The notes under the pieces: model-generated
The model's database searches: none
Told to the model about the DNA's origin: nothing
What the model saw: only the letters and a program-made list of their open reading frames with translations
Made by a program: the position numbers and the translations under genes
Part shown: piece by piece, positions 1 to 23,310 of the stretch
How the letters are laid out: every line of letters begins with the position of its first letter
Position numbering within the stretch: position 1 is the first letter of the stretch
Assembly (NCBI GenBank): GCA_903908785.1
Contig: CAIVTL010000278.1
Span: forward strand, 1 to 33,806
Reading direction: 5' to 3'
DNA: 33,806 bases
Origin: a candidate division WOR-3 bacterium
GTDB lineage: Bacteria; Hydrothermota; Tepidihabitantia; Tepidihabitantales; Tepidihabitantaceae

Positions 1-1451
1 ATCTTGGACAGCCGGCAGAAATCCTGGAGAGCTTGCCGATTCCCGAGCGAGTCGTGATTCCCATGCTGCAGGGGTTTGGCGTCGTGTTCAAACCGCTGGT
101 TGAGCCGGGCGCGGTGGTTGCTGCCGGCCAGATTATCGGCCGCGACGACGACTCGCTGTCATCGCCGATTCACGCGACCGTGAACGGCAAGGTCGCGGCA
201 ATCGCGCCGATTGCGCATGCCGGCCGCAGCGTTCCCGCCGTCGTCATCGACGGCGACGGAACCGATTCCTGGGCACGGCTCGAAGGGCACTCGGCCCAGC
301 ACCAGAAACTGACAGCGGAACAGATCGAGGAACTGCTCTACCGGTCCGGTGTCTCCGGCCTGGGCAGCGAAGGGATTCCGACCCGGTTTCACACTTCGGT
401 CATCACCCCGGCCGACGTCCGCCACCTCATCGTACACCTGACCGGCTCGGACGTGTTCAACCCGTCGCCGGGCGCGCTGCTTTCCGGCTCGAATCCTGAC
501 CGTTTCATGGCCGGGATTGAGATTCTACAGCGGGTGATGCCCAAAGCCCTTGTCCACGTCGTGCTGAGCCGCCAAGAGTCGGCATTGCTTGCGACCATCG
601 GCAGGCTGGCGGCTGGAAAGCAGGCGGTGAAACTCTATGCGGTGGACGCGAAGTACCCGCAAGCCGCGCCCGAGATGCTGGTCACGACGATACTGGGCGA
701 GGAGTTTCCGTATGGTCTCGCTGCGGCGAACATCGGCGTGGTAATCATCGACGCCCAGGCGGTGCTGCATGCCTACGAGGCCGTGGTCGAGGGGAAGCCG
801 GTCATTGAACGTATGGTCGCGCTGTCCGGGCCGGGCTTCAAGCAGCCCGGGCACGTGCGGGTGCGGGTCGGCACGCCCATCGAGCGCATCGTGGCCGGAC
901 GATTGAAGGATTCGGGCGAAGTCCGGCAGCGGGTCGTGCTGGACAGCCCGCTTTCCGGTCTCCGGGTTGACGATCTCTCATTGCCCATCGACCGCACCGT
1001 GAGCCAGTTGGTCGCCATTCCCGACGACGACCGCCGGCTGCCGTTCGCGTTCGCGCGGCCGGGCCTGCACACCGATTCGTTCTCCCGCAGTTTTGTCCCG
1101 GCGTGGCTGCCGACCGGCAAGGTGGCCGGCACGAACCGTCACGGCGAGGAACGCCCCTGTATCCAGTGCGGCTGGTGTGCCCGGGTCTGCCCCGTGCGCA
1201 TCATCCCGCACCTCATCTACCGGCAGGCGCGGGTCGAAACAAGCGAATTGCTTGTCCGCTACGGCGTCTTCAACTGCATCGACTGCAACCTGTGCAGCTT
1301 CGTCTGCACGTCCAAGATACCCCTGGCCCGGCACATCCGGGAGGCGAAAGAGAAGCTGCTTGCGGTCGGCTGCGACAATTCCTCCTGTGTTGTGTCGAAG
1401 TTCAACCTGAAGGGGGTTGAGGAGTACAGGGGAGTTAAGAGCGTCAGATGA
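1..1451 (+). CDS. RnfC/NqrA-like subunit of an Nqr/Rnf-type oxidoreductase (5'-partial; codon phase begins at nt 3)
   Basis: No in-frame stop lies between nt 3 and TTG-33, so the ORF runs off the window. VVIPMLQGFG...GQIIG...PIHATVNGKV matches the RnfC/NqrA N-terminal barrel-sandwich. GLGSEGIPT looks like a degenerate RnfC GLGGAGFPT loop. Two ferredoxin-type motifs are present: CIQCGWCARVCP and CIDCNLCSFVCT. It is the first gene of an nqrABCDEF-ordered operon. Confidence 0.75.
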   Translation, partial: LGQPAEILESLPIPERVVIPMLQGFGVVFKPLVEPGAVVAAGQIIGRDDDSLSSPIHATVNGKVAAIAPIAHAGRSVPAVVIDGDGTDSWARLEGHSAQHQKLTAEQIEELLYRSGVSGLGSEGIPTRFHTSVITPADVRHLIVHLTGSDVFNPSPGALLSGSNPDRFMAGIEILQRVMPKALVHVVLSRQESALLATIGRLAAGKQAVKLYAVDAKYPQAAPEMLVTTILGEEFPYGLAAANIGVVIIDAQAVLHAYEAVVEGKPVIERMVALSGPGFKQPGHVRVRVGTPIERIVAGRLKDSGEVRQRVVLDSPLSGLRVDDLSLPIDRTVSQLVAIPDDDRRLPFAFARPGLHTDSFSRSFVPAWLPTGKVAGTNRHGEERPCIQCGWCARVCPVRIIPHLIYRQARVETSELLVRYGVFNCIDCNLCSFVCTSKIPLARHIREAKEKLLAVGCDNSSCVVSKFNLKGVEEYRGVKSVR

Positions 1452-1452
1452 G

Positions 1453-1494
1453 GACGAAGTCAGAAGGCAGAGGTCAGAAGCTAGAAGTCAGAAG
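1453..1494. repeat. STR block, 6 x 7 bp (GACGAAG TCAGAAG GCAGAGG TCAGAAG CTAGAAG TCAGAAG)
   Basis: Phase-perfect heptamers read directly. Intergenic, between the first nqr gene and nqrB. Confidence 0.9.
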
Positions 1495-1518
1495 TGTGGG
1501 AGCGGAGGCCGGAGCGGC

Positions 1519-2616
1519 ATGAGCAAACTGCTGCACGCGTTGGTCGCGCGGTTGAACGGGCTGACGGCGAAGGGGCCGCTGAAGCGGCTGCAACCGGTGA
1601 CCGAGGCGCTCGACGAAGCGCTGCTCGGCACGGACAAGACCGCGAAGGCCGCGCCCTTCCTCTCCGACGGCATGGACGTGAAGCGAATGATGTCGCTCGT
1701 CATCATCGGGCTTGTCCCGGCAACGCTTGCCGGCATCTACTTCTACGGCTGGCGCGTGGTCGCGATGATTGTTACTTCATACGCGGTCGGCGGCATGGTC
1801 GAAGTCGCCTTCGCGATGGCGCGCCGCAAGCCGATTCACGAGGGCTTCCTGGTGACCGGGCTGATTTTCCCGCTCATCCTGCCCCCTACGACCCCGCTCT
1901 GGATTGTCGCGGTAGGCGTGTTCTTCGGCGTGTTCTTCGGCAAGGAAGTCTTCGGCGGGACCGGCCGGAATATCTTCAACCCGGCGCTCGTGGGCCGGCT
2001 GTTCATCAGTCTCGCGTTCCCGAGCCACTTCGCGACGATGTGGGGCAAGATGCACTGGGGCGGGGCGGGCGGCTTCGTCCATTGGACCGTTGACGCCGTA
2101 ACCCAGGCCACGCCCTTGATTGACTTCAAGGGCGCGCACATGATATCAACCGACCCGCTGTCGCTGTTTATCGGCCACACGCCCGGCTGCGTCGGGGAGA
2201 CGTTCCGTATCGGTATCATCCTCGGAGGTCTGTTCATCATCGTGATGCGGGCCGGGGACTGGCGGGTGCCGGTCGCGTACCTGGGCAGCGTCGTGGTCAC
2301 GGCGCTCGCCCTGCACGGTATCGTGCCGGACCGGGTCGCGCCGGTCTGGTTTCAACTCCTGTCCGGCGGGCTCCTGTTCGGCGCTTTCTTCATGGCCAAC
2401 GACCCGGTTACATCGCCCTACACATTCACGGGCCGCTGGATTTACGGCATCGCGCTCGGGGTGCTGACCGTGCTGATACGGGCGATATCCGGCCTGCCTG
2501 AGGGCGTGATGTTTGCCATCCTGCTGATGAATGCCGTCGTGCCCCTCATCGACATGATGGTGGTGGGCGCGGCCTACAAGAAGGCGACGACCCGGGTTCG
2601 CCGCTGGGCGGCCTGA
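1519..2616 (+). CDS. nqrB: Nqr subunit B / RnfD-like polytopic membrane subunit
   Basis: Multi-TM protein with RnfD/NqrB-like conserved stretches (GKEVFGGTGRNIFNPALVGR, DAVTQATPL, FFMANDPVTSP). ATG-1519 is preceded by GGAGG at 1504-1508. The ORF-track start at 1417 overlaps the upstream gene and reads through a repeat block. Confidence 0.85.
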   Translation: MSKLLHALVARLNGLTAKGPLKRLQPVTEALDEALLGTDKTAKAAPFLSDGMDVKRMMSLVIIGLVPATLAGIYFYGWRVVAMIVTSYAVGGMVEVAFAMARRKPIHEGFLVTGLIFPLILPPTTPLWIVAVGVFFGVFFGKEVFGGTGRNIFNPALVGRLFISLAFPSHFATMWGKMHWGGAGGFVHWTVDAVTQATPLIDFKGAHMISTDPLSLFIGHTPGCVGETFRIGIILGGLFIIVMRAGDWRVPVAYLGSVVVTALALHGIVPDRVAPVWFQLLSGGLLFGAFFMANDPVTSPYTFTGRWIYGIALGVLTVLIRAISGLPEGVMFAILLMNAVVPLIDMMVVGAAYKKATTRVRRWAA

Positions 2617-3200
2617 TGGCGAAGATGAAACTTGGCCGCAAGCTGCTGGAAATGCTCTTCATCGTCGGGCTGGGACTGGTTTCGGTCGCCATGCTGCTGG
2701 CGGCACAGAGCTATGCCGCCCCGGCGGTCAGGCGCTTCCAAATGCTCCGCCTGCGGACCAGCATCCTTGGGGCCGCGGGTGTCGCGACGGCGCCGGCCGA
2801 GGTGAACGGCATCTTCGAGGCGCGCGTCACGGAGGCACGGGGCAACGGCGCGACCTATTACCGCGTTGACAGTCTCGTTGTGTACGAATTCAAGGGCCGG
2901 GGACTCTGGGGCCCGGTCGAGGGCGTCATCACGCTCGACTCGGGCCTGACCCGTATCAGGAGCGTGCGCGTCCTCGTGCAGGAGGAAACTCCTGGTCTCG
3001 GCGACCGCATCAAGGACCCCGCGTACCTCGTCACCTACCAGAACAAGACCGCGCTTGAACCGCTGGTGCTGGCAATGCGCCATCAAGCGGTCGAGGCCAA
3101 CGAGGTTGACGCCATTTCCGGCGCGACGCTCAGTTCCGAGGCCCTGCTCGTTATTGTCGGCGACGCGGTCGCACAGCTGCGGCAGGCGATGGGAAAGTGA
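2616..3200 (+). CDS. nqrC: Nqr subunit C / RnfG-like FMN-binding subunit
   Basis: N-terminal TM helix plus an FMN_bind domain. Flavinylation motif DAISGATLSS (SGAT codons at 3116-3127). The ATG overlaps the nqrB stop (TGATG). Confidence 0.8.
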   Translation: MAKMKLGRKLLEMLFIVGLGLVSVAMLLAAQSYAAPAVRRFQMLRLRTSILGAAGVATAPAEVNGIFEARVTEARGNGATYYRVDSLVVYEFKGRGLWGPVEGVITLDSGLTRIRSVRVLVQEETPGLGDRIKDPAYLVTYQNKTALEPLVLAMRHQAVEANEVDAISGATLSSEALLVIVGDAVAQLRQAMGK

Positions 3201-3207
3201 GCGGAAG

Positions 3208-3837
3208 GTGAACTTCCGGAAGCTAGCCTACACCCGGCCGTGGCGGGTTTTCATCACCGGCTTCTTCAAAGAGAACGCCGTCTGCTACCAGGTGCTCGGC
3301 CTCTGCTCGACGCTCGCGGTCTCCAACAAGATGGAGAACGCGGTGGCGATGGGCGCGAGTGTGGTATTCGTCATGCTGGTGTCGTCCGCCGTCATCTCCC
3401 TGCTGCGCCGGGTGATCCCGGTCCAGTACCGCATCATCACGTACATGATTGTTACTTCGACTTTCGTCATCATCATTGACCATTTCCTCAAGGCCAACTT
3501 CCCGACAATCAGCGGCCAACTCGGCCCATACGTCGGCCTGATTATCACCAACTGCATCGTTATGGGCCGGCAGGAGGCCTTCGCCATCAAGAACGGTGTC
3601 GGGCTTTCCATCCTCGACAGCCTGGGCGCGGCCCTGAGCTACAGTTACGTACTGGTCGGCATCGCCGCGGTGCGCGAGTTCCTCGGGTTCGGCAGTCTGC
3701 TCGGCGTCAAAGTCACGCCGCCGCACTTCGAGAACTGGGTGGTAATATCCATGGCGCAGGGCGCGTGGTTTGTGATGGCGATTTTCGTCTGGGGCTTCCG
3801 GCGCATAGCGAAGCTGAAGCCCCTGGAACAGGAGTAG
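3208..3837 (+). CDS. nqrD: Nqr subunit D / RnfE-like membrane subunit
   Basis: FKENAVCYQVLGLCSTLAVS...ITNCIVMGR is typical of NqrD/RnfE. GTG-3208 is the first in-frame start after the nqrC stop. The ORF-track start at 3055 would overlap nqrC by 146 nt. Confidence 0.8.
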   Translation: MNFRKLAYTRPWRVFITGFFKENAVCYQVLGLCSTLAVSNKMENAVAMGASVVFVMLVSSAVISLLRRVIPVQYRIITYMIVTSTFVIIIDHFLKANFPTISGQLGPYVGLIITNCIVMGRQEAFAIKNGVGLSILDSLGAALSYSYVLVGIAAVREFLGFGSLLGVKVTPPHFENWVVISMAQGAWFVMAIFVWGFRRIAKLKPLEQE

Positions 3838-3840
3838 AAC

Positions 3841-4431
3841 ATGCACCTGAACCCGCTGGTCCTCCTGGTCGCGGCGATATTCACCCACAACATCGCCCTG
3901 ACCTACCTGCTCGGCATGTGCCCGATGATGGCCATGTCGCGCCGCATCAACACCTCGGTCGGCATGGGCCTCGCCGTCATGTTCGTCACCGCGGTCACCG
4001 CGCCCATCGACTGGGTCATCTACAACAAAGTTCTTGTCCCGACGCACTCCGAAGTCATGATGCTCCTTGTCTTCATCATCGTCATCGCCGCCGTGGTCCA
4101 GTTGCTCGAACTCCTGATGCGCCGGTTCCTGCCCGCGCTGCACGCCGGGTTCGGGCCATTCCTGCCGCTGGTTACCGTCAACACCACCATTTTCGCGGTT
4201 TCGATATTCTCGGTCATGCGCAACTACAACCTCTGGCAGAGCACGGCATTTGCGGTTGGCTCGGGCGCGGGCTGGGCCCTGGCAATCATCCTCATCGCTG
4301 GAGTCAGAAACCGGGTTCAGCTCGTCAGCGACGTGCCGGCGGACCTGCGCGGGGCCGGCATCACGATGATAATCGCCGGCATTCTTGCGCTCAGCTTCAT
4401 CGGTTTCTCGGGTATGGTGGCAGTACAATAG
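3841..4431 (+). CDS. nqrE: Nqr subunit E / RnfA-like membrane subunit
   Basis: 6-TM protein. IFTHNIALTYLLGMCP and LPLVTVNTTIF are NqrE/RnfA-type motifs. It starts 4 nt after the nqrD stop. Confidence 0.85.
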   Translation: MHLNPLVLLVAAIFTHNIALTYLLGMCPMMAMSRRINTSVGMGLAVMFVTAVTAPIDWVIYNKVLVPTHSEVMMLLVFIIVIAAVVQLLELLMRRFLPALHAGFGPFLPLVTVNTTIFAVSIFSVMRNYNLWQSTAFAVGSGAGWALAIILIAGVRNRVQLVSDVPADLRGAGITMIIAGILALSFIGFSGMVAVQ

Positions 4432-4466
4432 GATGAAGGACAAAGGCGGAAGGACCAAGACGGAAG
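4432..4466. repeat. STR block, 5 x 7 bp (GATGAAG GACAAAG GCGGAAG GACCAAG ACGGAAG)
   Basis: Starts 1 nt after the nqrE stop. Intergenic. Confidence 0.85.
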
Positions 4467-4476
4467 GGGCACGGCC

Positions 4477-5580
4477 GTGATAACCATGCTGGTGATGGCC
4501 GGGCTGCTCATCACCGTGGCGGTCGTGCTGCTCGTGGCCGAGCGCATCCTCATCAGCTATGGCGAGTGCTCAGTTACCATCAACGACAAGCAGTGCATCC
4601 AGGTCGAAGGTGGCGAGACCCTGCTCTCCGTCCTCAACCGTCACAAACTCTTCGTTCCTTCAGCTTGCGGGGGCAAGGCGACCTGCGGGTTCTGCAAGGT
4701 CGTGGTAAGGGGCGGGGCCGGCACAATCCTGCCGACGGAAGAAATATTCATCAACAAGGCCGAGCGCGAACTGGGCATGCGCCTCGCCTGCCAGGTCAGG
4801 GTCGAGCGGCCGGTCAGGGTCCAGATGCCGGAGACCCTGCTGGGCGCACGCGAGTATACCTCCGAAGTGCTGGCGGTGGAGCAGCTCACTTATGATACGC
4901 GGCTCATCCGGTTCGGGCTCAAAGGCGGCGATGAAGTCCACTTCAAACCCGGCCAGTACGTCCAACTCCTCGTGCCCGGTACGGACCAATATCGCGCCTA
5001 TTCAGTCGCCAGTCCTCCAAGCCGCGCTCTCGCCTCTCGCCTCTCGTCTCTCGTCTCTCCCGAGTTTGAGCTCATCATCCGTCGCGTGCCGGGCGGCCTC
5101 TGCACCGGCTGGATTCACAGCGCGGTCGAGAAGGGCGACGAAGTGCGATTCACCGGGCCGTTCGGCGACTTCTATCTCCACGAAGACTCGAACCGGGAAA
5201 TCGTGGCCATCGGCGGTGGCTCGGGAATGGCCCCGATGCGGTCCATCATCCTGCACCTGGCCGAGCAGGGCATGCCGCGCAAGGTGACCCTCTTCTTCGG
5301 CGCGCGCCGCCGGCGCGACCTCTTCTACGTCGCGGAGTTTCAGGCGCTCGAACGACTGTATCCGAACTTCCGCTATCTCCCGGCGCTTTCCGAGCCCCGA
5401 CCGGAAGACCACTGGACCGGCGAAACCGGGTTCATTACGCAGACCGTGCAGAAGCACATCGTGCCGGGCAGGGAAAGGGAGGCCGTGCTCTGTGGCCCGC
5501 CGCCGATGATTGACGCGGCCATGCGCGTGCTGCCGCGCATCGGCGTGCAACCCGAGCATACCTACTTCGACAAGTTCTGA
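4477..5580 (+). CDS. nqrF: Nqr subunit F (TM anchor + 2Fe-2S ferredoxin + FAD/NAD(P) reductase)
   Basis: N-terminal TM helix. 2Fe-2S motif SACGGKATCGFCK...ACQ. FAD motif YRAYSVAS. NAD motif GGGSGMAPMRS. GGAAGGGG lies 7 nt upstream of GTG-4477. A heptamer repeat (5028-5062) is inserted in frame just after the RxYS motif. Confidence 0.88.
   Translation: MITMLVMAGLLITVAVVLLVAERILISYGECSVTINDKQCIQVEGGETLLSVLNRHKLFVPSACGGKATCGFCKVVVRGGAGTILPTEEIFINKAERELGMRLACQVRVERPVRVQMPETLLGAREYTSEVLAVEQLTYDTRLIRFGLKGGDEVHFKPGQYVQLLVPGTDQYRAYSVASPPSRALASRLSSLVSPEFELIIRRVPGGLCTGWIHSAVEKGDEVRFTGPFGDFYLHEDSNREIVAIGGGSGMAPMRSIILHLAEQGMPRKVTLFFGARRRRDLFYVAEFQALERLYPNFRYLPALSEPRPEDHWTGETGFITQTVQKHIVPGREREAVLCGPPPMIDAAMRVLPRIGVQPEHTYFDKF
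5028..5062. repeat. STR block, 5 x 7 bp (CTCTCGC x2, CTCTCGT x2, CTCTCCC), inside nqrF
   Basis: Encodes roughly the LASRLSSLVS part of ...SRALASRLSSLVSPE..., between the RxYS motif and the next beta-strand. Confidence 0.9.
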
Positions 5581-5583
5581 GGC

Positions 5584-5617
5584 GGGAAATGGGACAAAAG
5601 GGACCAAAGAGACACAA
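5584..5617. repeat. STR block, 7-9 bp units (GGGAAAT GGGACAAAA GGGACCAAA GAGACACAA)
   Basis: Covers the start codon and the first 10 codons of menA. Confidence 0.75.
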
Positions 5618-6512
5618 GGCAGGCATCTGGCTGCGCGAGTTGCGCGCGCCGTTCTTCGTCGGCACGGTGATGCCCGCGGTCTTCGGCGCGGCCTACGCCC
5701 ACTACGCCGGCGCCGCGTTCAACTGGCCGCTGTTCGGCCTGACGATACTCGGCACCGTTCTCACCAACGCCGGCCTGAACATGACCAATGACTACTTCGA
5801 CCACAAGAGCGGCGATGACGACCTGACCCCGGCCACGCCGGTGTCCGGCGGGAGTAAGGTTATCCAGGAGGGGCTACTGAAGCCGCGGCAGGTACTGGCC
5901 GCCGGTATTGCCTGTCTCGCACTTGCCGCAGTAGTCGGCCTGTATCTCAATGCCGTGACCGGCGGGCGCGTGCTGCTGATTGTTGGCATCGTCGGGATGG
6001 TAATAGCGTGGTTCTATACCGCGCCGCCGCTGAAGTTCGGGCACCGCAGCGGGGTGGGCGAGGTGGTCTGCGTGCTCGGGTGCGGGCCGGTAATTGCGTT
6101 CGGGGCGTTCTTTGTGCAGGCGCGGGTATTTTCGTGGGCGGCGGTGTTTGCCAGTCTTCCCATCGGACTGTTGATGGGTCTGGTGCTCTTCATCAACGAG
6201 TTCCACGACGTACACGCGGACGGGGCCGTGGGCAAGCGGACTTTGGTGGTCGCGCTCGGCACCGGGGCCGCGTCTTTCGTGCTCGCTTTCACGCTGGCGG
6301 CCACCTATCTGCTGACAGTCGTGCTCGTGGTTCTGAATATCCTTGCGCCTGCGTCGTTGTTCGCACTGGTGACCCTGCCGCTGGCTGTATTCGCGGTAAT
6401 CCGGGCCCGGCGCTATCACGCCGAGTCGCCGAAACTGCTGCCGGCGAACTTCGCGGTCATCGGCACGCACCTGCTCTTCGGCGCGATTCTCACCCTGGTG
6501 GCGGCATTATGA
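5589..6512 (+). CDS. menA: UbiA-family prenyltransferase, MenA-like (1,4-dihydroxy-2-naphthoate polyprenyltransferase)
   Basis: 8-9 TM helices. NDYFDHKSGDD and NEFHDVHADGAVGKRTL are Asp-rich UbiA/MenA motifs. The first 10 codons (MGQKGPKRHK) lie inside a repeat block. Confidence 0.75.
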   Translation: MGQKGPKRHKAGIWLRELRAPFFVGTVMPAVFGAAYAHYAGAAFNWPLFGLTILGTVLTNAGLNMTNDYFDHKSGDDDLTPATPVSGGSKVIQEGLLKPRQVLAAGIACLALAAVVGLYLNAVTGGRVLLIVGIVGMVIAWFYTAPPLKFGHRSGVGEVVCVLGCGPVIAFGAFFVQARVFSWAAVFASLPIGLLMGLVLFINEFHDVHADGAVGKRTLVVALGTGAASFVLAFTLAATYLLTVVLVVLNILAPASLFALVTLPLAVFAVIRARRYHAESPKLLPANFAVIGTHLLFGAILTLVAAL

Positions 6513-7387
6513 ACGGTGTGGGTCGGATACTTGCGCCCATCGAGGCCGCTCTGGCCGCGGTCGAAGAGACCATGGCCCGCCGCAATAATCCCGGCCTCGA
6601 AGTGCTTGCCGGGGGGAAGCGACTGCGCCCCGCGCTCCTCTTGTTCGCCGCCGGGGCGGCCGGGCACGGAGAACACGGACGGACACGGACGAACACAGAC
6701 GGACACGGGCAGGCAATGGCCGACGCGGTTTTGCTGGCGGCCGCGGTAGAGATGGTCCACACGGCATCGCTGATTCACGACGACGTGATTGACGAGTCGA
6801 GCGAGCGACGGAAAGGCGCGGCTCTCCACAAGGTCATCGGGACCCGGGCAGCCATCATCCTGGCCGACTATCTGTTCGTGCAGGGCCTGGCATTACTGGA
6901 ATCGGTCAAACGAACCAGCTTGGTTCCCGAGGTCGTCCGCGAGGTCTTGGTGATGTGTGAAGGGCAATGGCTAGAGATGAAAGTCGCGGCGGGCGCAACC
7001 TGTACCGAGCGACAGTACCATGAGGTAATCGAGAAGAAGACCGCGGCCCTGTTCGCGTTCTGCTGCCGGGCCGGCGGGCGGTTGCGGGGAGCCGATGCCG
7101 CGGAGTTGGCCGCGCTGGATGAGTTCGGCCGGAACTTCGGCTTCGTGTTCCAGTTGCTCGACGATGCGGAGGACATGGGGGAGGGAGAGAGGAAGAAAGG
7201 GAGTAAGAGAGTGAGGGCGGAACAGAACAGTATTGAGCGGGCGATTGCCCAATGCGGCGGACGGCGATACCTGCGCCGAAGCGCGCTGGAATTCGCCCGG
7301 CGGGCTCGGACCGCGGCGCGGAAGATCGCCAACCCGGTGGCCCGGCGAGGCATGATCCGGCTACTGGAATCTGTAGCGGAGGGGTAA
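6509..7387 (+). CDS. Polyprenyl diphosphate synthase (trans-IPPS family)
   Basis: KRLRPALLLF, LIHDDVIDES (first DDxxD) and FQLLDDAEDM (second DDxxD). ATG-6509 overlaps the menA stop (ATGA). The ORF-track N-terminus (6008-6508) is an out-of-frame read through menA. Two repeat blocks are inserted in frame. Confidence 0.75.
   Translation: MNGVGRILAPIEAALAAVEETMARRNNPGLEVLAGGKRLRPALLLFAAGAAGHGEHGRTRTNTDGHGQAMADAVLLAAAVEMVHTASLIHDDVIDESSERRKGAALHKVIGTRAAIILADYLFVQGLALLESVKRTSLVPEVVREVLVMCEGQWLEMKVAAGATCTERQYHEVIEKKTAALFAFCCRAGGRLRGADAAELAALDEFGRNFGFVFQLLDDAEDMGEGERKKGSKRVRAEQNSIERAIAQCGGRRYLRRSALEFARRARTAARKIANPVARRGMIRLLESVAEG
6662..6710. repeat. STR block, about 5 x 10 bp (GAACACGGAC GGACACGGAC GAACACAGAC GGACACGGGC), inside the polyprenyl synthase gene
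   Basis: Encodes GHGEHGRTRTNTDGHG, just upstream of the first DDxxD helix. Confidence 0.85.
7177..7230. repeat. Purine-rich degenerate repeat (GGGAGAG/GGAAGAA/AAGAGAG...), inside the polyprenyl synthase gene
   Basis: Encodes GEGERKKGSKRVRAEQN, directly after the second DDxxD motif. The periodicity is weaker than in the other blocks. Confidence 0.5.
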
Positions 7388-7442
7388 GTGAGCGTTGCGA
7401 ACACCGAGGGCGTGCGCCGCGACGCTGTCTTCTCGTTGCCGG

Positions 7443-7471
7443 TTGCCACCAAGTCCAAAGCCGTCTAGACT
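7443..7471 (+). promoter_or_regulatory. Sigma70-like promoter (TTGCCA-17-TAGACT), 11 nt upstream of TTG-7483
   Basis: Read directly from the sequence. It implies a 5'UTR of only about 4-5 nt. Confidence 0.35.
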
Positions 7472-7482
7472 GACAATCTGAA

Positions 7483-7866
7483 TTGAACCGAAACCTCTGC
7501 CGAGTCACGGTCCTTGACCTGCTGCTCATCGCGGGGCTGCTCGGCCTGCCCGGCTGGGCACTGATTGTATCCTGGCGCGCCGCCCGCGAGCAGCCCGTCG
7601 CCTACATCTACGAGAACAACCGGTTGCTCGGCGCCTATCAACTCGACCGCGACCAGCTTATCGCTATCGGGGACAAGGCCCGGCCGGACATGAAGATAGA
7701 AATCAAGGGCGGCGCAATCCGCGTTGCCGAATCGGACTGTCCCAAGGGCGTATGCAAGCAGGCCGGTTGGGTGCGCACGCCCGGACGGTCAATCGTCTGC
7801 GTGCCGAACAAGGTGCTGATTGAACTGCGGGGCGAGCGCAAGGGATATGATGCGGAAAGCTACTAG
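7483..7866 (+). CDS. NusG domain II-containing protein (DUF1312 family)
   Basis: N-terminal TM helix, then the family-typical ...IKGGAIRVAESDCPKGVCKQAGWV...GRSIVCVPNKVLIEL. TTG-7483 is the only in-frame start codon available. Confidence 0.65.
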   Translation: MNRNLCRVTVLDLLLIAGLLGLPGWALIVSWRAAREQPVAYIYENNRLLGAYQLDRDQLIAIGDKARPDMKIEIKGGAIRVAESDCPKGVCKQAGWVRTPGRSIVCVPNKVLIELRGERKGYDAESY

Positions 7867-9142
7867 CGGGAAGTCCGAAGCTCGAAGTCCGAATGACGAA
7901 TGCAGCCCCACGGACAGCATTGTGAGGCTATCGATTCTGGTCGCCGGCGCCTCGGTGCTGCAGGTTGCCGAGTCGCTGCTCCCGCATCCGCTGCCCGGAG
8001 TCAGGCTCGGTCTTGCCAACATCATCACGGTCATCGCGATGGTCTACATCGGCCCGGGCAGCGCGATACAGCTTGCGGTGCTGCGCACGCTCATCAGTTC
8101 AATGGTGCTGGGAACGTTCCTGACGCCGACCTTTGTGCTTTCTTTCTCGGGTGGCGTGGTCAGCGCGGTCGTCATGGTTCTCTTGTATCGTTTCTCGCAC
8201 GGGGGCGGGCCATTCCGTTTCAGCCTCATCGGCATCAGCGTGGGCGGGGCGGTGAGCCACATCCTGACCCAGGTCGCGCTGGTCTATCTGCTCTTCATCC
8301 GCAGTAGCGGCGTGTTGCTGCTCTGGCCGTGGCTTGCGCTGTCGGCGGTAGTCACGGGAGTAGTCACCGGCATGATTGCGGTTCAGGCCGTACGGCGACT
8401 GGACACCGGCGAGGCGAGTGGGGTGGCGCTGACCCCGGCGTCGGACCGGTCGGACGTGTCGGACCGGTCGGACAAGGATTCACTCGTCCGGCGCATTCGG
8501 CCGGAAGTGAAGATTACCACGGTTGTGGTCCTTGGGCTCGCGGTGGTTGTCTTCGCGAACTACGCGCTTTATGCCGCCGTCCTGGTGCTGCTCGCGGCCG
8601 TCACGGTGCTGGCCCGGGTTCGGTTCAGCCGTCTGCTGGCCGGGCTGAAGCGAATCTGGGCGCTGCTCGTTGCCGCACTGGTGATGCCGGTCATCTTCTC
8701 GCCCTGGGGAAGAGTGCTCATCGCAATCGGGCCGGTGCGAGCGACCGACCAGGGCCTTCACGCAGGCGCCAGCTTCGCTGCGCGCATCCTCTTGTTGTTC
8801 TTCGCGACCGCCCTTTTGGCCCAGACGACCGCGCCGGAGGAAATCGCGGGCGGGCTGGAGAAGCTGCTCGGCCCGCTGCGGGTCTTCCGGGTAAGGCCGG
8901 GCCGGCTGGCGCGGTCGCTGAGCCTTTCCTGGTACTACTTCCCCCAGTTCTGGCAGAGCGTTCGGCGCATGGTTGGCGAGAGTCGCGGCCGCAAGGGCTG
9001 GCTGGACCGGACTATCCATCTTCCGGGCGATGTCGTTGCCGACCTGTACTTCGCGGCCGACCGACTTGCCGACTCCGGGTCGGATGGACGCGACCGGCAG
9101 CCGGCGCCTGGCGGGTTTCCGCCACCGCCTGACCAGGAGTGA
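7847..9142 (+). CDS. Fusion protein: Gx transporter family (Hpre_diP_synt_I-like) N-terminal half + EcfT/CbiQ-like ECF T-component C-terminal half
   Basis: N-terminal half: LPHPLPGVRLGLANIITVIAM...GISVGGAVSHILTQV. C-terminal half: IRPEVKITTVV..., LLFFATALLAQTTAPEEIAGGLEKLL, CbiQ/EcfT-like. The halves are joined by the peptide SDRSDVSDRSD, encoded by a 9-bp tandem repeat. The start is uncertain: ATG-7847 or GTG-7922, which lies after a repeat block. Confidence 0.65.
   Translation: MMRKATSGKSEARSPNDECSPTDSIVRLSILVAGASVLQVAESLLPHPLPGVRLGLANIITVIAMVYIGPGSAIQLAVLRTLISSMVLGTFLTPTFVLSFSGGVVSAVVMVLLYRFSHGGGPFRFSLIGISVGGAVSHILTQVALVYLLFIRSSGVLLLWPWLALSAVVTGVVTGMIAVQAVRRLDTGEASGVALTPASDRSDVSDRSDKDSLVRRIRPEVKITTVVVLGLAVVVFANYALYAAVLVLLAAVTVLARVRFSRLLAGLKRIWALLVAALVMPVIFSPWGRVLIAIGPVRATDQGLHAGASFAARILLLFFATALLAQTTAPEEIAGGLEKLLGPLRVFRVRPGRLARSLSLSWYYFPQFWQSVRRMVGESRGRKGWLDRTIHLPGDVVADLYFAADRLADSGSDGRDRQPAPGGFPPPPDQE
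7870..7904. repeat. STR block, 5 x 7 bp (GAAGTCC GAAGCTC GAAGTCC GAATGAC GAATGCA)
   Basis: Lies between the NusG-II gene stop and the conserved part of the Gx-transporter gene. Confidence 0.85.
8438..8473. repeat. STR block, 4 x 9 bp (GCGTCGGAC CGGTCGGAC GTGTCGGAC CGGTCGGAC)
   Basis: Encodes ASDRSDVSDRSD, the linker between the Gx-transporter and EcfT halves. The same unit family occurs at 27262. Confidence 0.9.
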
Positions 9143-9373
9143 CGCCCGCGCCCGACAGCGGAAGCCCCGGATATGCGGTCGGGGCCCATGGCATCAGGCA
9201 GAGCGCCCAGAACCGGTTCCAAACGAGGCGGCGCGCCCGGCTGGCATGAAATGTGATACCTTGCGTAGAGATGGTACTGCGCCTTCAGAGGTCGGTTGCT
9301 GACCGTTCGGACGGGTCGGTCTGGCATGATACCAGCATACGAGGATATGGACGCTTACAAACGAGGAGGTAGA

Positions 9374-10549
9374 ATGACCAAGCACAGAGTGCTGCTGACA
9401 GCAGTACTGGTCGTGGCCCTTGCGGCCGGTGGAGCGGTAGGCGCGCAGCTGAATTTCGGCGGCGACCTGAAGCTGCACCTGTTCGATATGTCCACAGGCT
9501 CGAGCACGATTATGGGCTGGGATTCGCTCGGTAACCCCGTGCCGGTCAAATACGACACGACCGACCGTTGGGACATGGGGTTTGAGCGAGCGTACCTGTA
9601 CTTCGTGGTCCAGATTACCGACCAGGCATCGGTGGACATCGAGCCGGAGTTCGTAGCGCGGAGCGGCGCAACCCCGCAACTGGGTATGCGGATTGGCACC
9701 CAGCGCGCGTCAAACGAGTCCGGCTTGGGCGTCGCGTTCAACGCGGCGAAGCTGACCCTGGCGGTCCCGTGGAACCTGCAGGTCTCGGGCGGAATCTTGC
9801 GGCCGCTTTTCACCGAGGACTACGGCGACATGAAGGCGTTTCAGGAGACGAACCGGTACGACAAGACCGGCGCCAACTACTGGTTGCAGGCGTGGCACGA
9901 CATGGGGATCGAGGTCTACAAACCGTTCGAACTGAAACTGGGCGAGGAGTACGTCTCGATTCCGACGTATCTCTACCTGCTGAACGGCGCGCCGAACTAC
10001 ATCGATATCCCGGCATCCGACAACAACAGCAACAAGATGGTGATGTTGCACGTCGCGCCGGAGTTCTGGAAGATACGGGTGATGGGTTCGTACGGGTTCG
10101 GAAAGTGGGACGATGAGGGCAAGTACAACGTGATGCGCTATGCCGCCGGGCTGAGCGCCGCGTTCGGGCCCGTGTGGCTGCGGGCGGAGTACATGGGCGG
10201 TCGGTGGGACAACGAGATGTGGCAGCAGTCCGGGGAGCCGCTGGTCATCGACACCTTTGCCGCGAAGCCGTTCGGCTACTACGCCAAGCTCGGGGTGAAC
10301 ATCGTGCCTGACCGGCTCCGTTTCATCCTCGACTACGACTACGCGGAACACAACTTCAACGGGTTCCTGTCCATCGGGAACCCGGCGGTGAAGCAGCAAT
10401 ACACAACCGTGTCCGGGACACTGGGGTGGACCGTGTTTACCGGGTCGCAGGTGATGCTCGGCGTCGAGAAGGCGATGTGGAAGACGAGCGACGGGAACAC
10501 CAAGCTCGACTTCCTGCGGCCGACCCTGGGCTGGCGCACGGTCTTCTAA
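9374..10549 (+). CDS. Outer-membrane beta-barrel (porin-like) protein
   Basis: AGGAGG lies 5 nt upstream of ATG-9374. Signal peptide MTKHRVLLTAVLVVALAAGGAVGA. Alternating amphipathic beta-strand pattern rich in Y/G/W. C-terminus ...LGWRTVF has the terminal Phe typical of OMPs. Confidence 0.6.
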   Translation: MTKHRVLLTAVLVVALAAGGAVGAQLNFGGDLKLHLFDMSTGSSTIMGWDSLGNPVPVKYDTTDRWDMGFERAYLYFVVQITDQASVDIEPEFVARSGATPQLGMRIGTQRASNESGLGVAFNAAKLTLAVPWNLQVSGGILRPLFTEDYGDMKAFQETNRYDKTGANYWLQAWHDMGIEVYKPFELKLGEEYVSIPTYLYLLNGAPNYIDIPASDNNSNKMVMLHVAPEFWKIRVMGSYGFGKWDDEGKYNVMRYAAGLSAAFGPVWLRAEYMGGRWDNEMWQQSGEPLVIDTFAAKPFGYYAKLGVNIVPDRLRFILDYDYAEHNFNGFLSIGNPAVKQQYTTVSGTLGWTVFTGSQVMLGVEKAMWKTSDGNTKLDFLRPTLGWRTVF

Positions 10550-10561
10550 GAGGATTCCGTC

Positions 10562-11650
10562 GTGATGAGAGCCCCAGTCAGACTGCCGGCTGCGCCTCGC
10601 CGGTGGTCAATTGCTCGGGGGCTCCCCGACGGATTGTCTCCGCTGCGGCTGCTCGCATTCGCCTCGGCAGTCGTTTTGCTGGCCGCGGGGTGCCGCCATT
10701 CGGGCGCAGCGGTGCTGCGCAAGCAGACCCGGCTGATGATGGACACCTACGTGACAATCCAGGCCACGGGCCCGGCGCAGACGGCGGACAAGGCAATTGA
10801 GGCGGCGTTCGGACGACTGGAGGAGATCTCCCACAAGTTCAACTTCCTCGACTCGACCAGCCCGGTCCACGCGTTCAACGTCAACAATGCGCCCATCACC
10901 GACCCGGAACTGGTCAAGGTAGTGCAGGCCGCGGTGGCGGTGAGCGCGGCCTCGGGCGGTGCGTTCGACATCACGGTGCGGCCGCTGGTCGAGCTCTGGG
11001 GCTTCTACGGCGACCACCCGGCGGTGCCGTCGCAGCGGGCGATTGACTCGTGTCTCAGGATGGTCGGCTATAAGAACCTGGTGGTCGAGCCGGGCCGCGT
11101 GACGAAGCTCCGGCCGGACGTCACTATTGACCTCGGCGGCATCGCCAAGGGCTATGCCCTCGACGAAGCGGCGCGGGTGCTGCGGGCGGCGGGCATCGAT
11201 TCCGCGCTCATCGACCTCGGCGGGGACGTGTTCGCCATCGGCAGGAAGGGCAACCAGAACTGGAAGGTCGGCATCCGCAACCCGCGGAAGGATGGCGTCA
11301 TCGGGGTGGCCGCGGTGTCGAACCTGGCGGTGGTAACCTCGGGTGACTACGAACGCTTCTTCTTCGGCCCGGACAGCGTCCGCTACTGCCATATCATTGA
11401 CCCGGCAACGGGCTGGCCGCCGCGCGGCCTGATAAGCACGACCGTGGTGATGCGCGACCCGCTGACGGCGCAGGGCTGGTCCAAGGTGCTGTTCATCCGC
11501 GGCACCGACGCGCTGCCGCTCATCGAGAAGACCGGCGGCATCGAGGCGATTCTGATTACCGACAGCATGAGGGCAATCTGTACGCCGGGCCTGGTCAGCG
11601 CGATGGATACCACGCGGCTGAACGGAGTGACGAATTCCGCAGGCCGGTAG
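10562..11650 (+). CDS. apbE: FAD:protein FMN transferase (ApbE/Ftp), probable lipoprotein
   Basis: MMDTYVTIQA, DITVRPLVELWGF, IDLGGIAKGYALD, DLGGDVFAIG, VVTSGDYERFF and HIIDPATGWP are classic ApbE motifs. LLAAGC is a lipobox-like signal. Confidence 0.88.
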   Translation: MMRAPVRLPAAPRRWSIARGLPDGLSPLRLLAFASAVVLLAAGCRHSGAAVLRKQTRLMMDTYVTIQATGPAQTADKAIEAAFGRLEEISHKFNFLDSTSPVHAFNVNNAPITDPELVKVVQAAVAVSAASGGAFDITVRPLVELWGFYGDHPAVPSQRAIDSCLRMVGYKNLVVEPGRVTKLRPDVTIDLGGIAKGYALDEAARVLRAAGIDSALIDLGGDVFAIGRKGNQNWKVGIRNPRKDGVIGVAAVSNLAVVTSGDYERFFFGPDSVRYCHIIDPATGWPPRGLISTTVVMRDPLTAQGWSKVLFIRGTDALPLIEKTGGIEAILITDSMRAICTPGLVSAMDTTRLNGVTNSAGR

Positions 11651-11686
11651 ATAAACGGGTGTGTTCGAAATGAAAGGAGCTTTGGA

Positions 11687-12274
11687 ATGAAGAGACTTAC
11701 GTGGCTGCTGGTGGCATTCCTGCTTATCGCGCTGGTGCGAACGGCCGGCGCGGTGGTCCTGTTGAACCACGAAGCGGCGCTGAAGGCGATGTTTCCCGAT
11801 GCCGATAAGATAGTGACCGAGGAGGTGAGCTTGACGCCGGACCAGGTTACCGCGGTCAAGAGCCACCTCGGCGATAAGTGGACGCTCTACCAGGCCGGCG
11901 GACAGTCTGAGGAAGAGAAGGAAGCTGACACGGCGGTGTTCTACTTCGGCACCAAGGCGGGCGAGAAGACCGGCGTAGCCCTGATTGAGGTTCAGCCCGG
12001 CAAGTGGGGCCCGGTGAAGTTCATCGTGGCAATGGACCTCGCGGGCAAAGTCAAGGACCTGGCGGTCATGTCCTACGTTGAGCAGCGGGGCCGCCCGATT
12101 TCGACCAAGCGGTTCCTCGGCCAGTTCGTCGGGAAGACCGGCAAGAGCCAGGTTACCGTCGGCAAGGACGTCGACGCCATTTCCGGCGCAACCATCTCCT
12201 CACGCGCGACGGCCTTCGCGATCAAGAAGGTAATCGCCCTGTACGACGCGGTCTACCTCGAGCCCGAGAAGTAA
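11687..12274 (+). CDS. Secreted FMN-binding domain protein (NqrC/RnfG/PplA-like flavinylation substrate)
   Basis: GGAG RBS 8 nt upstream of the ATG and a signal peptide. FMN_bind-type C-terminus with DAISGATISSRA (SGAT codons at 12182-12193). It lies directly downstream of apbE. Confidence 0.75.
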   Translation: MKRLTWLLVAFLLIALVRTAGAVVLLNHEAALKAMFPDADKIVTEEVSLTPDQVTAVKSHLGDKWTLYQAGGQSEEEKEADTAVFYFGTKAGEKTGVALIEVQPGKWGPVKFIVAMDLAGKVKDLAVMSYVEQRGRPISTKRFLGQFVGKTGKSQVTVGKDVDAISGATISSRATAFAIKKVIALYDAVYLEPEK

Positions 12275-12293
12275 CAGCGGGAAAGGAGCGATA

Positions 12294-12785
12294 ATGAACG
12301 GATTGTCTCTGCCGACACTGCCGAAGTACGCCAAGGTCACAATCACCTTCTTCCTGCTGCTCATCGGCCTGACGTATCTTGTGGGAGTTCTCAACATCTA
12401 CCAGAAGACGAAGTTCACGGTCCAGGGCGCAATCGAAAACGAGCGGGGCTCGGAAGAGAAGATGATTTACCCCAAGGAGTTCGGGGACATGGTCAGCGTC
12501 ACCCATTTCCACCTCGGCGGCTGGGCGATGATGTTCATGTGGGTGCTGCTGTTCTTCCTGTTCTCCACTTATGGCCCCAAACTCAAGGGCGTGCTCGGGA
12601 CACTGCCTTTCCTGCTGGCACCGCTTGACGCGGGCAGCATGTGGCTTACCCGCTATGCGGCGCCCGGTTTTGCCTACCTCCTGATGGCCGTGGGCTTTCT
12701 GATGGCCGCGATATTCGGGCTGGTTCTCGTGCTCGACCTCATCAACTTTTGGTGGGGCAGGAAACCGGTGACGCAGTCGGCATGA
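12294..12785 (+). CDS. Hypothetical 4-TM membrane protein
   Basis: AAAGGAG RBS. Four predicted TM helices. It has a THFH His pair. No family was recognised. Confidence 0.5.
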   Translation: MNGLSLPTLPKYAKVTITFFLLLIGLTYLVGVLNIYQKTKFTVQGAIENERGSEEKMIYPKEFGDMVSVTHFHLGGWAMMFMWVLLFFLFSTYGPKLKGVLGTLPFLLAPLDAGSMWLTRYAAPGFAYLLMAVGFLMAAIFGLVLVLDLINFWWGRKPVTQSA

Positions 12786-18009: not shown

Positions 18010-19812
18010 TTACCGCTGCTGCCTTCCGGCCCAGCCGGACCGGGCGTTGTCGTGGTTGTAGGTTGGCCAGGCGGTGTTGGCCAAGTGCGCCTTGCCGATG
18101 GCCACGCAGTAGACGGAGAAGAAACCGGCCAGGTAGACGTTCCCGTCAGGCCCGACCAGCGGAGTCGTGTCGTCGTCCCCTTCGTCTCTGGGCGCGCGGC
18201 CGCGCGGCGTCTCCCCGACGGAGTCTTCGATGCTGAACGTCCAAAGAACGTCGCCATTCCACGAGAAACAGGTGAGCTCGTCGACCTCACTGCAATAGGT
18301 CAGCACCGTGCTGTCGGACAGAGCACACGGCGATGACATGCTGGCATTGCCATAGGGAATCCCTGCTGCCCAGACCCAGTGTCCGTCGGAATCATAGCAG
18401 TAAAGCCGTCCGTCGTCAGACTGGAAGTAGACACGGTCGTCATATCCGACCGTGACCCCGCCTTGGTACATCAAGACCGAGACGGACGCGCTCCACGCTA
18501 ACGTCCCATCCTGGTTGAAGCAGAGCAAGTGGCCGTCGTTGTCCGCGATTATCACGCGGCCGCGACTGTCTATGACAGGTGCGTAAAGCCAATCAGTACG
18601 TCCTATGTGAGTCGTGTCCTGCCATAGCACGGTGCCGTTGGTGTCCAACGCCGTGATGCCAGCCCGTGACGTGTAGCCCTTGGTGCAGCCAGCGTAGATG
18701 GTGCCGTTTGCACCGACAGCCACGCCGTATCCAGGTTCTGATGGCACGAGCGACAGTGGCACGCGCCATTGGATGTGCGCGGAATCGCCGCAGTCCTGCA
18801 ACTTGAGTACGAACGTCGTGTCCTGAGTGAAATAGGGCGTCGCCACGTACAGCGCACCATCGGGCCCGATCGTCGGTGTGCAATTACAGACTCGCAGTTT
18901 GATGCTCCAGACCCGGCTACCGGTCCGCGTGTCGAGACAGTAGATTTGACCGCTGTCGTCCGTCACTTGGTACAGTCTGCTGCCATCGATACCGAGGCTT
19001 GGTCCAAAGAAGATGGCTTGATTCGACTCCGAAGTCCATCGGGACATGCCGTTCGTCCAGATGCAGGCTGTACGGTCGTATGCACCCAAGTAGAGGACAC
19101 GCTCGCCGTCCAACTCGCCCATCGCCGGCGAGCCGGTGGAGCCGAGTTCCTCCGAATCCGGCGTGTACCACAACACGGCGACCGGGCTGACGTTGACGAA
19201 CTTCGCACCGGCGATTGGGTTAACCATGCTGCCCTTGTCCTTCAGTAGGACGTGGATGACATGGCGGCCGGTGGTTTGCCACTTCACGGAGTCTGTTACC
19301 GTGCTGCCGCTGGCGACGAACGGGGACCAACCCGAGGTCATGCTGTCGCCCCATATGAACTTCACGCTCACGCTGTCGCCGTCCGGGTCCATAACCGTAA
19401 CTGAAGGCCGATACCAACGGTCAACTGCCCAGCGCGCGAAGCCCGTGACCGTGTCCGCCAGTTGCGGCGGCGTTGAGGCGTGGAACAGGCATTCGTCCGA
19501 CCATTTGGAGACGCGGCCGGCTTCGTTGCGGGCCTTGACTCTGATGTGAAAGGTGCCGGTATCAGGGAAGGAACGAGGATAGCAGGCAGTGTCGCCGCTC
19601 GCGAAGTAGCCGGTCGTTGTCGAGTCGCCGTTGCCCCAGTCGAAGATGTACTGCACCTTCAGGCCGTTCGGGTCGGTCGCGGCGGTGAAGAAGCAGAGCG
19701 AGTCGTCGAGGATATCGGCCCAGGGCGCAGCCGGCGTCAGCGGAGCCTTCTTTGCACAGCCGACGAGAGCGACCAGCGCGCCGGTCAGAATCAGGAGCGC
19801 GTATTTGGACAC
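18010..19812 (-). CDS. PKD-like + PQQ/BamB-like beta-propeller lipoprotein (paralog 1)
   Basis: GGGGAGG RBS and a GTG start. Signal peptide with lipobox LVGC. Two PKD-like modules (YIFDWGNGDSTT, DPDGDSVSVKFIWGD). Repeated 'DG.L.W' propeller blades. C-terminus WPTYNHDNARSGWAGRQQR. Confidence 0.75.
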   Translation of the reverse strand: MSKYALLILTGALVALVGCAKKAPLTPAAPWADILDDSLCFFTAATDPNGLKVQYIFDWGNGDSTTTGYFASGDTACYPRSFPDTGTFHIRVKARNEAGRVSKWSDECLFHASTPPQLADTVTGFARWAVDRWYRPSVTVMDPDGDSVSVKFIWGDSMTSGWSPFVASGSTVTDSVKWQTTGRHVIHVLLKDKGSMVNPIAGAKFVNVSPVAVLWYTPDSEELGSTGSPAMGELDGERVLYLGAYDRTACIWTNGMSRWTSESNQAIFFGPSLGIDGSRLYQVTDDSGQIYCLDTRTGSRVWSIKLRVCNCTPTIGPDGALYVATPYFTQDTTFVLKLQDCGDSAHIQWRVPLSLVPSEPGYGVAVGANGTIYAGCTKGYTSRAGITALDTNGTVLWQDTTHIGRTDWLYAPVIDSRGRVIIADNDGHLLCFNQDGTLAWSASVSVLMYQGGVTVGYDDRVYFQSDDGRLYCYDSDGHWVWAAGIPYGNASMSSPCALSDSTVLTYCSEVDELTCFSWNGDVLWTFSIEDSVGETPRGRAPRDEGDDDTTPLVGPDGNVYLAGFFSVYCVAIGKAHLANTAWPTYNHDNARSGWAGRQQR

Positions 19813-19824
19813 GGTTTCCTCCCC

Positions 19825-21546: not shown

Positions 21547-21623
21547 GGCGAGCAGGGCGAGCGTGAACGGAACCAGATACTTTATCGCGGCCTCCTTGGT
21601 GACCAGGGTATCATCTATGCAAG

Positions 21624-21652: not shown

Positions 21653-21668
21653 GGGAGACAGCCGCCGC

Positions 21669-23304: not shown

Positions 23305-23310
23305 GCGAAG

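Follow-up and report, generated by a model that had tools for sequence, protein, structure and literature searches.

An NQR-lineage operon from a candidate division WOR-3 bacterium encodes an A subunit with RnfC-type iron-sulfur motifs

Rnf and Na+-NQR have membrane cores of the same architecture, and RnfC of the one is the homolog of NqrA of the other. In Rnf, the iron-sulfur clusters of RnfC receive electrons from the riboflavin of RnfD and hand them on to flavin mononucleotide (FMN) and NAD+. NqrA is described as devoid of cofactors in a 2014 evolutionary study, in a 2022 paper on the structure of Rnf, and in a 2025 review. Under the model of the 2014 study, a duplicate of Rnf lost RnfB, then lost the cofactors and cysteines of RnfC, and recruited NqrF. 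Here we consider a six-gene operon from a candidate division WOR-3 bacterium (Hydrothermota). It lies at the start of a stretch of 33,806 nucleotides (GenBank assembly GCA_903908785.1, contig CAIVTL010000278.1, positions 1 to 33,806), which we call the window. An earlier note, made from the sequence alone, took the operon to be an Nqr whose A subunit has kept the iron-sulfur motifs of RnfC. The comparisons that we report indicate that an iron-sulfur A subunit on a pump of the NQR lineage is real, that it is conserved, and that it is not unique to this window. What is peculiar to the window is a substitution in subunit E (C115T) and a neighbourhood that resembles a known locus for extracytosolic electron transfer.

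The source is a metagenome-assembled genome (MAG) that is 88% complete and is split into 755 contigs, and the window is the start of its contig C278. By open reading frame (ORF) calls, six co-directional genes, A to F, occupy positions 3-5580 of the 33.8-kb window (Table 1). As in canonical Na+-NQR, the six genes stand in the order A-B-C-D-E-F, the input module is of the NqrF type (a transmembrane helix, a 2Fe-2S site, and sites for flavin adenine dinucleotide (FAD) and NADH), and RnfB is missing: no RnfB-like sequence was found anywhere in the 33.8 kb. In alignments, the N-terminal membrane helix of F gives it the architecture of NqrF, and the cofactor motifs of NqrF are intact (the four 2Fe-2S cysteines, RAYS, and GGGSGMAP). 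The flavinylation threonines of B (DAVTQAT) and C (DAISGAT) are kept as well, and a gene for the flavin transferase ApbE lies about 5 kb downstream. Contig C528 of the same genome carries another operon, a canonical rnfCDGEA-B, whose RnfC has the loop GLGGAAFPT and two CxxCxxCxxxCP motifs. RnfB occurs in the genome only with that operon (contigs C528 and C480).

The contig start truncates subunit A, and the note suggested recovering its N-terminus from the adjacent contig sequence. We obtained the missing 19 residues (MAGNVIRKSFGGGFRFRRY) from P0001, a protein of 501 amino acids that is identical to the window's A over all 482 residues that the window encodes. On the contig that encodes P0001, the operon is preceded by genes for a histidine kinase and a sigma-54-dependent response regulator, as it is in the relatives L010 and L012.

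Scores against curated profiles do not settle what kind of complex this is. A scores 248.8 bits against the NCBIfam model for rnfC (TIGR01945), just above the cut-off of 245.95, and 128.8 bits against the model for nqrA (TIGR01936), far below the cut-off of 321. B passes the cut-off for rnfD (257 versus 207 bits); it scores higher with two models of NqrB (298 and 274 bits), but both of these scores are below their cut-offs. F narrowly misses the nqrF cut-off (TIGR01941), and about 33 positions of the NqrF model have no counterpart in it; C, D, and E reach no curated NCBIfam cut-off at all. So, unlike canonical Na+-NQR, no subunit of the window reaches the cut-off of its Nqr equivalog (score/cut-off in bits: A, 128.8/321; B, 274.4/349.9; C, 46.3/144; D, 179.2/244.85; E, 187/247.55; F, 282.5/295). 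Among solved structures, A matches three RnfC chains at 159, 139, and 136 bits and NqrA of Vibrio cholerae at 60 bits. An AlphaFold model of A (predicted local distance difference test (pLDDT) score 87, predicted template modeling (pTM) score 0.88) has template modeling (TM) scores of 0.75/0.85 to RnfC and 0.70/0.78 to NqrA. By themselves, the hidden Markov model (HMM) and structure comparisons are ambiguous between Rnf and NQR. The profile for NqrM (PF04400) had no match in the source genome, but it had no match in any control genome either.

The alignments of A show a mixture of characters. All eight cysteines of the two [4Fe-4S] motifs are present, and the Fer4 dicluster, Complex1_51K, and NQRA_SLBB profiles, for which the note had proposed an HMM search, all match. 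Its description of two complete CxxCxxCxxxCP motifs holds for every cysteine and for the first proline; the second motif ends otherwise (Table 1). The loop that binds the phosphate of FMN in RnfC is degenerate, just as the note had read it, and the consensus for the window's family is SLDREGIPT. The ECEPYLT motif of the FMN/NAD+ site of RnfC corresponds to GSDVFNPS in the window and to GSExYN in the family consensus, so the ExEP motif is degenerate too, and KYPQ is retained. Between the SLBB and ferredoxin domains, A has a 36-residue insertion that is found in all A subunits of NqrF-type operons and in no RnfC. Alignments of RnfC structures to A break at this place, whereas the alignment of V. 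cholerae NqrA continues through it. Finally, A ends in a tail that is specific to its family, GCDxSxC(I/V)LPxFDLKGxEEYKGV (1368-1448 in the window, residues 475-501 of P0001). In the model of the monomer, this tail is disordered and its pLDDT is low; it may be a docking element or a metal-sharing element.

If we compare these characters across groups of A and RnfC proteins, the aligned sequences form a step-wise series. RnfC has the loop GLGGAxFPT, ECEPYLT, KYPQG, and eight cysteines, and it has no insertion. The window's family has SLDREGIPT (GLGSEGIPT in the window) in place of the loop, GSExYN and KYPQ, the insertion, the eight cysteines, and a tail of the form GCDxSxC...EEYxGV. A more distant clade with an iron-sulfur A subunit has lost the loop by deletion and has the insertion and the eight cysteines. 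Canonical NqrA has the same deletion and the insertion, with zero to two of the cysteines left (by alignment, the proteobacterial NqrA still has two of the eight).

To place the operon, we used 80 metagenome loci that contain NqrF (the best 80 from an alignment-based scan, with no canonical NQR among them), named canonical NQR references from PLSDB records (Parabacteroides, Prevotella, Ruegeria, Neisseria, and Enterobacter), and, as the root, six named Rnf references (Bacteroides, Monoglobus, Fusobacterium, Vescimonas, Gemmatirosa, and the source genome itself). We excluded L063, L069, L083, L076, L031, and L077, which were near-duplicates or fragments, as well as a Vibrio locus (L124) in which B was the only match in the ORF classification and a Klebsiella locus (L131) without A and E. 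The concatenated alignment of B, D, and E has 715 columns, and a quick search with 69 rows and a careful search with 43 rows gave the same tree.

In the tree of B, D, and E, all of the NqrF-type operons form one clade apart from the six Rnf operons (support 100/100). This clade splits in two. Clade I (100/100) is made up of the window's family, a locus with a short iron-sulfur A (L051), and a nested group that has no A gene. Clade II (87/92) holds canonical NQR together with the distant iron-sulfur clade (99/94), plus a large clade without A (100/100). Canonical NQR is itself a clade (100/100), and the window lies outside of it. The tree of A and RnfC agrees with it: every A subunit is set apart from RnfC with support of 100/100, and the pairing of canonical NqrA with the distant iron-sulfur clade has 100/98. 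This agreement implies that A evolved together with the core rather than being a recent import from an RnfC. Against the six Rnf references, neither A nor the core falls within ordinary Rnf; a placement of all six subunits there, with a separate rnfB nearby, was what the note had named as fatal to its reading. Along with the NqrA-type insertion, the trees bear out its classification of the operon as Nqr, which rested on the gene order and on the presence of NqrF without RnfB.

Rnf, the outgroup, has the cluster cysteines, and so do members of both branches of the first split among the NqrF-type operons. These cysteines are thus ancestral, and their absence from canonical NqrA is a loss. On these trees, a large living clade has kept the iron-sulfur A subunit of its ancestors, so that this is no one-off hybrid, and canonical NQR is a derived offshoot that is nested within the NqrF-type clade. 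The note had suggested an evolutionary intermediate between Rnf and Nqr. This is apt insofar as ancestral characters of RnfC (the eight cysteines, ..EGIPT, and KYPQ) stand beside derived ones (NqrF, the absence of RnfB, and the insertion), but it is not a rare transitional form: the clade is large and diverse. The distant iron-sulfur clade (L073, L091, L093, and L100) shares NqrF and the two CxxCxxCxxxCP motifs with the window's family; it is sister to canonical NQR and its FMN loop is deleted, whereas the window's clade keeps ..EGIPT, KYPQ, the C-terminal tail, and a linkage to UbiA-family and polyprenyl synthase genes.

How widespread is this form of A? In a protein database clustered at 90% identity, we found 402 relatives of A, and the best 120 share 48-100% identity with it. 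They come from WOR-3, Omnitrophota, Endomicrobiia, and others, under the names "RnfC," "NqrA," or "4Fe-4S dicluster domain-containing protein." Across 77 family members, which reach down to 48% identity, none of the eight cysteines varies, and the proline after each motif is invariant or nearly so. Among the best 150 hits to clusters at 50% identity, 128 representatives are full length (at least 400 amino acids); about 94 of these have both cysteine motifs and no GGxxFPT loop, and about 34 are true RnfC. Judging by their sequences, then, an iron-sulfur A is present in no fewer than about 90 clusters at 50% identity, and this form is common in uncultured bacteria. Every A relative whose gene context we examined has the six-gene order with NqrF. 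The window has all of the features of this group: an A subunit of about 495-501 amino acids with RnfC_N, a degenerate 51K domain, SLBB, the NqrA-type insertion, two CxxCxxCxxxC motifs, and the GCDxSxC tail, followed by B to F with NqrF. The note would have counted its reading as refuted if NqrA proteins with Fer4 domains were common and already described. They are common, but we could not confirm a prior description: full-text literature searches returned no account of an iron-sulfur NqrA, and the anammox complexome paper (de Almeida et al. 2016) was outside these searches.

The distribution is patchy within the order to which the source organism belongs, with an NqrF ortholog in just 1 of 40 genomes of relatives. 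A scan of the contigs of genomes with a single F protein gave six relevant loci, none of which has an A gene. More broadly, many NqrF-type operons are BCDEF with no gene like A or RnfC upstream (33 loci with at least 2.5 kb of sequence upstream of B, including L029-L031, L048, L054-L056, and L063-L069), and the genes that are found there instead are unrelated to one another. These operons belong to at least two clades and include named MAGs of Bacillota, Limnochordia, and Acholeplasmataceae. It seems that the A subunit was lost outright more than once. In the Acholeplasmataceae operon (L029:4710-6713), the C subunit (FMN_bind) has 667 amino acids, which is more than three times the usual length.

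Table 1. Features of the operon and of the genes that follow it in the window.
Feature	Position	Strand	Evidence and remarks
Subunit A (NqrA/RnfC homolog)	3..1451	+	5'-truncated by contig start; Pfam RnfC_N, Complex1_51K, NQRA_SLBB, Fer4 dicluster
Degenerate FMN-phosphate loop GLGSEGIPT	357..383	+	Alignment; RnfC equivalent GLGGAxFPT; deleted in distant iron-sulfur A clade and canonical NqrA
36-residue insertion, common to NqrA and absent from RnfC	1038..1145	+	PDB alignments and multiple alignment
First [4Fe-4S] motif CIQCGWCARVCP	1158..1193	+	Sequence; Cys invariant in 77 family members
Second [4Fe-4S] motif CIDCNLCSFVCT	1275..1310	+	Four Cys kept; ends CT, all relatives CP
GCDNSSC, start of family-specific C-terminal tail	1368..1388	+	Two near-invariant Cys
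Short tandem repeat between A and B	1447..1500		Units of ~8 nt, GTCAGAAG/CTAGAAG
Subunit B (NqrB/RnfD), 365 aa	1519..2616	+	Pfam NQR2_RnfD_RnfE; flavinylation motif DAVTQAT
Subunit C (NqrC/RnfG), 194 aa	2616..3200	+	Pfam FMN_bind; flavinylation motif DAISGAT
Subunit D (NqrD/RnfE), 209 aa	3208..3837	+	Pfam Rnf-Nqr; both cluster-ligand Cys present (GLCS, TNCI)
Subunit E (NqrE/RnfA), 196 aa	3841..4431	+	Pfam Rnf-Nqr; first ligand Cys kept (GMCP), second is Thr
Thr115 of E, codon ACC	4183..4185	+	Cys (TGC/TGT) in the 85 other NqrF-type E subunits aligned and all Rnf references
Subunit F (NqrF-type)	4486..5580	+	Pfam Fer2, FAD_binding_6, NAD_binding_1; N-terminal transmembrane helix
In-frame 7-bp tandem repeat in F	5026..5058	+	CTCTCGC-like units
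UbiA-family, MenA-like prenyltransferase	5589..6512	+	Pfam/NCBIfam; directly after F, position conserved in window family
Polyprenyl diphosphate synthase	6509..7387	+	Pfam
NusG_II-domain protein, then fusion of Hpre_diP_synt_I (Gx transporter) and CbiQ (energy-coupling factor (ECF) T component)	7483..9142	+	
Outer-membrane-barrel-like protein, ApbE, FMN_bind protein, protein with four transmembrane helices	9296..12785	+	
ApbE flavin transferase	10562-11650	+	
Secreted FMN_bind protein with DAISGAT flavinylation motif	11687-12274	+	

Two short repeats lie within the operon. The one between A and B resembles blocks on more than 20 other contigs, so it is dispersed across the genome. The one in F inserts about 11 residues (ALASRLSSLVS) into the FAD-binding domain; it occurs in this lineage only, and the relatives lack it.

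Another peculiarity is in subunit E. In these pumps, four cysteines, two in D and two in E, ligate an intramembrane [2Fe-2S] cluster (PMC12174285), and in V. cholerae the C29A variant of NqrD loses this cluster. The window's E keeps C27 and has threonine at position 115, within PLVTVNTTIFAV (the PLVTVNTT region, 4171-4194), where the others read ..VNC... The E protein is identical on four contigs, and the T115 motif is present in all ten members of its 90% cluster. These ten variants, which are at least 90% identical overall, come from JGI, ENA, and Logan samples. They differ elsewhere and have the same flanking motif, and because they were sampled independently, C115T is not an assembly error. 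The nearest relatives do not have the substitution, and a genome of the same genus (G002) has cysteine at this position. On these sequences, C115T is fixed in this lineage. E also has two other unique changes, N57D and I111V; the other five subunits have no unique change at columns that are conserved in at least 97% of sequences. We looked for a residue that might stand in for the cysteine. D has an extra cysteine (AVCYQ), but relatives that keep C115 have it too. The aspartate at position 57 of E is another candidate, but from our reading of the topology it is on another helix and near the membrane surface. Either three cysteines and some other ligand may hold the cluster, or the pump may be impaired.

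The genes that follow the operon bear on what its electron acceptor might be. In the window, the gene after F belongs to the UbiA family, and the same holds, with or without a polyprenyl synthase gene, for 4 of the 6 family loci that have at least 2 kb of sequence downstream of F (L010, L012, L014, and L042); UbiA is essentially absent from about 40 loci without A. The MenA-like gene after F is a difference from canonical Na+-NQR. The whole of 5589-12785 also invites comparison with the flavin-based extracellular electron transfer (FLEET) locus of Listeria and Lactiplantibacillus (Ndh2, DmkA, DmkB, FmnA/B, EetA/B, and PplA; PMC9888254). The window has the domains that one would look for in such a locus: a DmkA-like prenyltransferase, a DmkB-like polyprenyl synthase, a flavin transferase (ApbE, equivalent to FmnB), a fusion of an ECF T component with a Gx transporter, and a secreted FMN_bind protein that could be flavinylated. 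No Men or futalosine pathway to a naphthoquinone head group of its own was found in the 88%-complete genome. On the other hand, the NADH dehydrogenase in the window is a six-subunit pump rather than Ndh2, and the organism is apparently diderm, with a gene for an outer-membrane-barrel-like protein in the cluster. The NusG_II and Hpre_diP_synt_I proteins may be the counterparts of EetA and EetB. We offer the resemblance to a FLEET-type locus for extracytosolic electron transfer as a lead only. Farther downstream, at 18010-26907, are five consecutive large proteins with PQQ_2/beta-propeller (BamB-like) repeats, of which the minus strand encodes two and the plus strand three.

What might this complex do? 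Gene content, motifs, conservation, phylogeny, and fold are what the sequences show; from these we infer which cofactors are bound, the path of the electrons, their acceptor, and the ion that is pumped. We lean towards a redox-driven ion pump with six subunits that belongs to the NQR lineage, in a large and early-branching clade, and whose A subunit binds two [4Fe-4S] clusters derived from RnfC. NAD(P)H would be oxidized at NqrF, first by FAD and then by the 2Fe-2S cluster. Electrons would cross the core as they do in NQR and Rnf, from the cluster between D and E to FMN on C, to FMN on B, and to riboflavin on B. Because the clusters of A have been kept and its FMN/NAD pocket has not, the simplest reading is a pump that is driven by NADH, with the clusters most likely placed after riboflavin and before the final acceptor, as an additional relay, a buffer, or an exit. 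The note's other suggestion, an extra route by which electrons enter or leave, is plausible in this light. The acceptor would probably be a prenylated naphthoquinone that is made with the MenA-like prenyltransferase and the polyprenyl synthase encoded after F. We did consider flow in the reverse direction, with ferredoxin delivering electrons at A, and we rejected it: such a complex would spend the ion gradient while running downhill.

Several observations make us cautious about this view. In V. cholerae, quinone is reduced at NqrB without iron-sulfur clusters, so a relay is not obviously needed. Only three of the four cysteine ligands of the intramembrane cluster are present in the window, two in D and one in E. 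We found no MenB, MqnA/D, or MqnC above the family cut-offs in the 88%-complete source genome, so if the acceptor is a quinone, its head group may be salvaged. And in one locus of the family (L013:13549-16541), no UbiA gene follows F; instead there are genes for a rubredoxin, a flavodiiron protein, a rubrerythrin, a glutaredoxin, and a thioredoxin-reductase-like protein.

The last two of these points would fit better if the clusters of A were a true second catalytic exit, to an acceptor in the cytoplasm. The complex would then be an NADH:X oxidoreductase that pumps Na+ or H+, rather than a quinone reductase, and X could be a small redox protein, such as the rubredoxin, or a substrate that binds in the remodelled, NuoF-like pocket. 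Conservation of the clusters is strict, the FMN loop has been remodelled to a conserved SLDREGIPT rather than randomized, and the conserved tail of this family brings two more cysteines, all of which speak for such an exit. Nevertheless, the tight and family-specific linkage to the prenyltransferase and the polyprenyl synthase indicates a quinone, and no candidate gene for another acceptor is conserved across the family's loci. We think that a second exit is unlikely, if worth keeping in mind.

A broader claim would be that the clade is a distinct, third type of Rnf/NQR pump, in which the clusters and the pocket of A make up a second redox site, and that this lineage has in addition a [2Fe-2S] cluster held by three cysteines and a ligand other than cysteine. 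The second site might be an exit to an acceptor that is not a quinone, or it might be an obligatory relay to a salvaged naphthoquinone that feeds a chain of extracytosolic flavoproteins. We put this forward as speculation and would not bet on it.

It is also conceivable that the pump is impaired or rewired in this particular lineage, which would be compatible with every other reading. Besides losing a cysteine that is kept in the 85 other NqrF-type E subunits aligned and in all Rnf references, the lineage has N57D and I111V in E, both unique to it, a second motif in A that ends in CT where relatives have CP, and the repeat-derived insertion in F, and the window's terminal branch is long (0.18, versus 0.03-0.08 in its sisters). 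But all six reading frames are open, the subunits other than E have no unique change at highly conserved columns, and the identity of the T115 motif in ten variants that differ elsewhere indicates fixation under purifying selection. We rather doubt that the pump is impaired.

It seems quite improbable that the cysteine motifs are relics without clusters and that the complex is a textbook Na+-NQR with a purely structural A. Canonical NqrA does function without cofactors, and the two cysteines that remain in proteobacterial NqrA are relics of this kind. If the motifs had no function, though, we would expect them to decay, as they did in canonical NqrA; instead, the eight cysteines and the prolines are invariant or nearly so in the 77 sequences down to 48% identity and across about 90 clusters at 50% identity.

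Finally, we give very little credence to a divergent Rnf in which RnfB was swapped for an NqrF-like reductase and RnfC still carries out NAD+/NADH chemistry: A and B do exceed the cut-offs for rnfC and rnfD, both the sequence (159 versus 60 bits) and the fold (TM score 0.75 versus 0.70) of A are nearer to RnfC than to NqrA of V. cholerae, and the ferredoxin-type motifs and the architecture of the membrane core are as in Rnf (PDB 7ZC6, 9ERI, and 8AHX, and the genome's own operon on C528), but the operon has NqrF instead of RnfB, the trees of the core and of A split from Rnf at 100/100 and join NQR, A has the NqrA-type insertion and degenerate FMN loop and ExEP motifs, two NADH sites on one pump would be thermodynamically senseless, and the genome already has a canonical rnfCDGEAB operon.

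Complexes that have gained NqrF and no longer have RnfB, but whose iron-sulfur sites in A are still under strict selection, are alive and abundant today, and in the trees canonical NQR is derived from among them. This sets the order of events: the gain of NqrF came first and the loss of the clusters of A later, and the decay of the FMN loop preceded that of the iron-sulfur sites. This clade is natural material for learning about the past role of the A subunit, and perhaps its present one. It also suggests that, in these uncultured anaerobes, annotations of "Nqr" may conceal a different enzyme chemistry.

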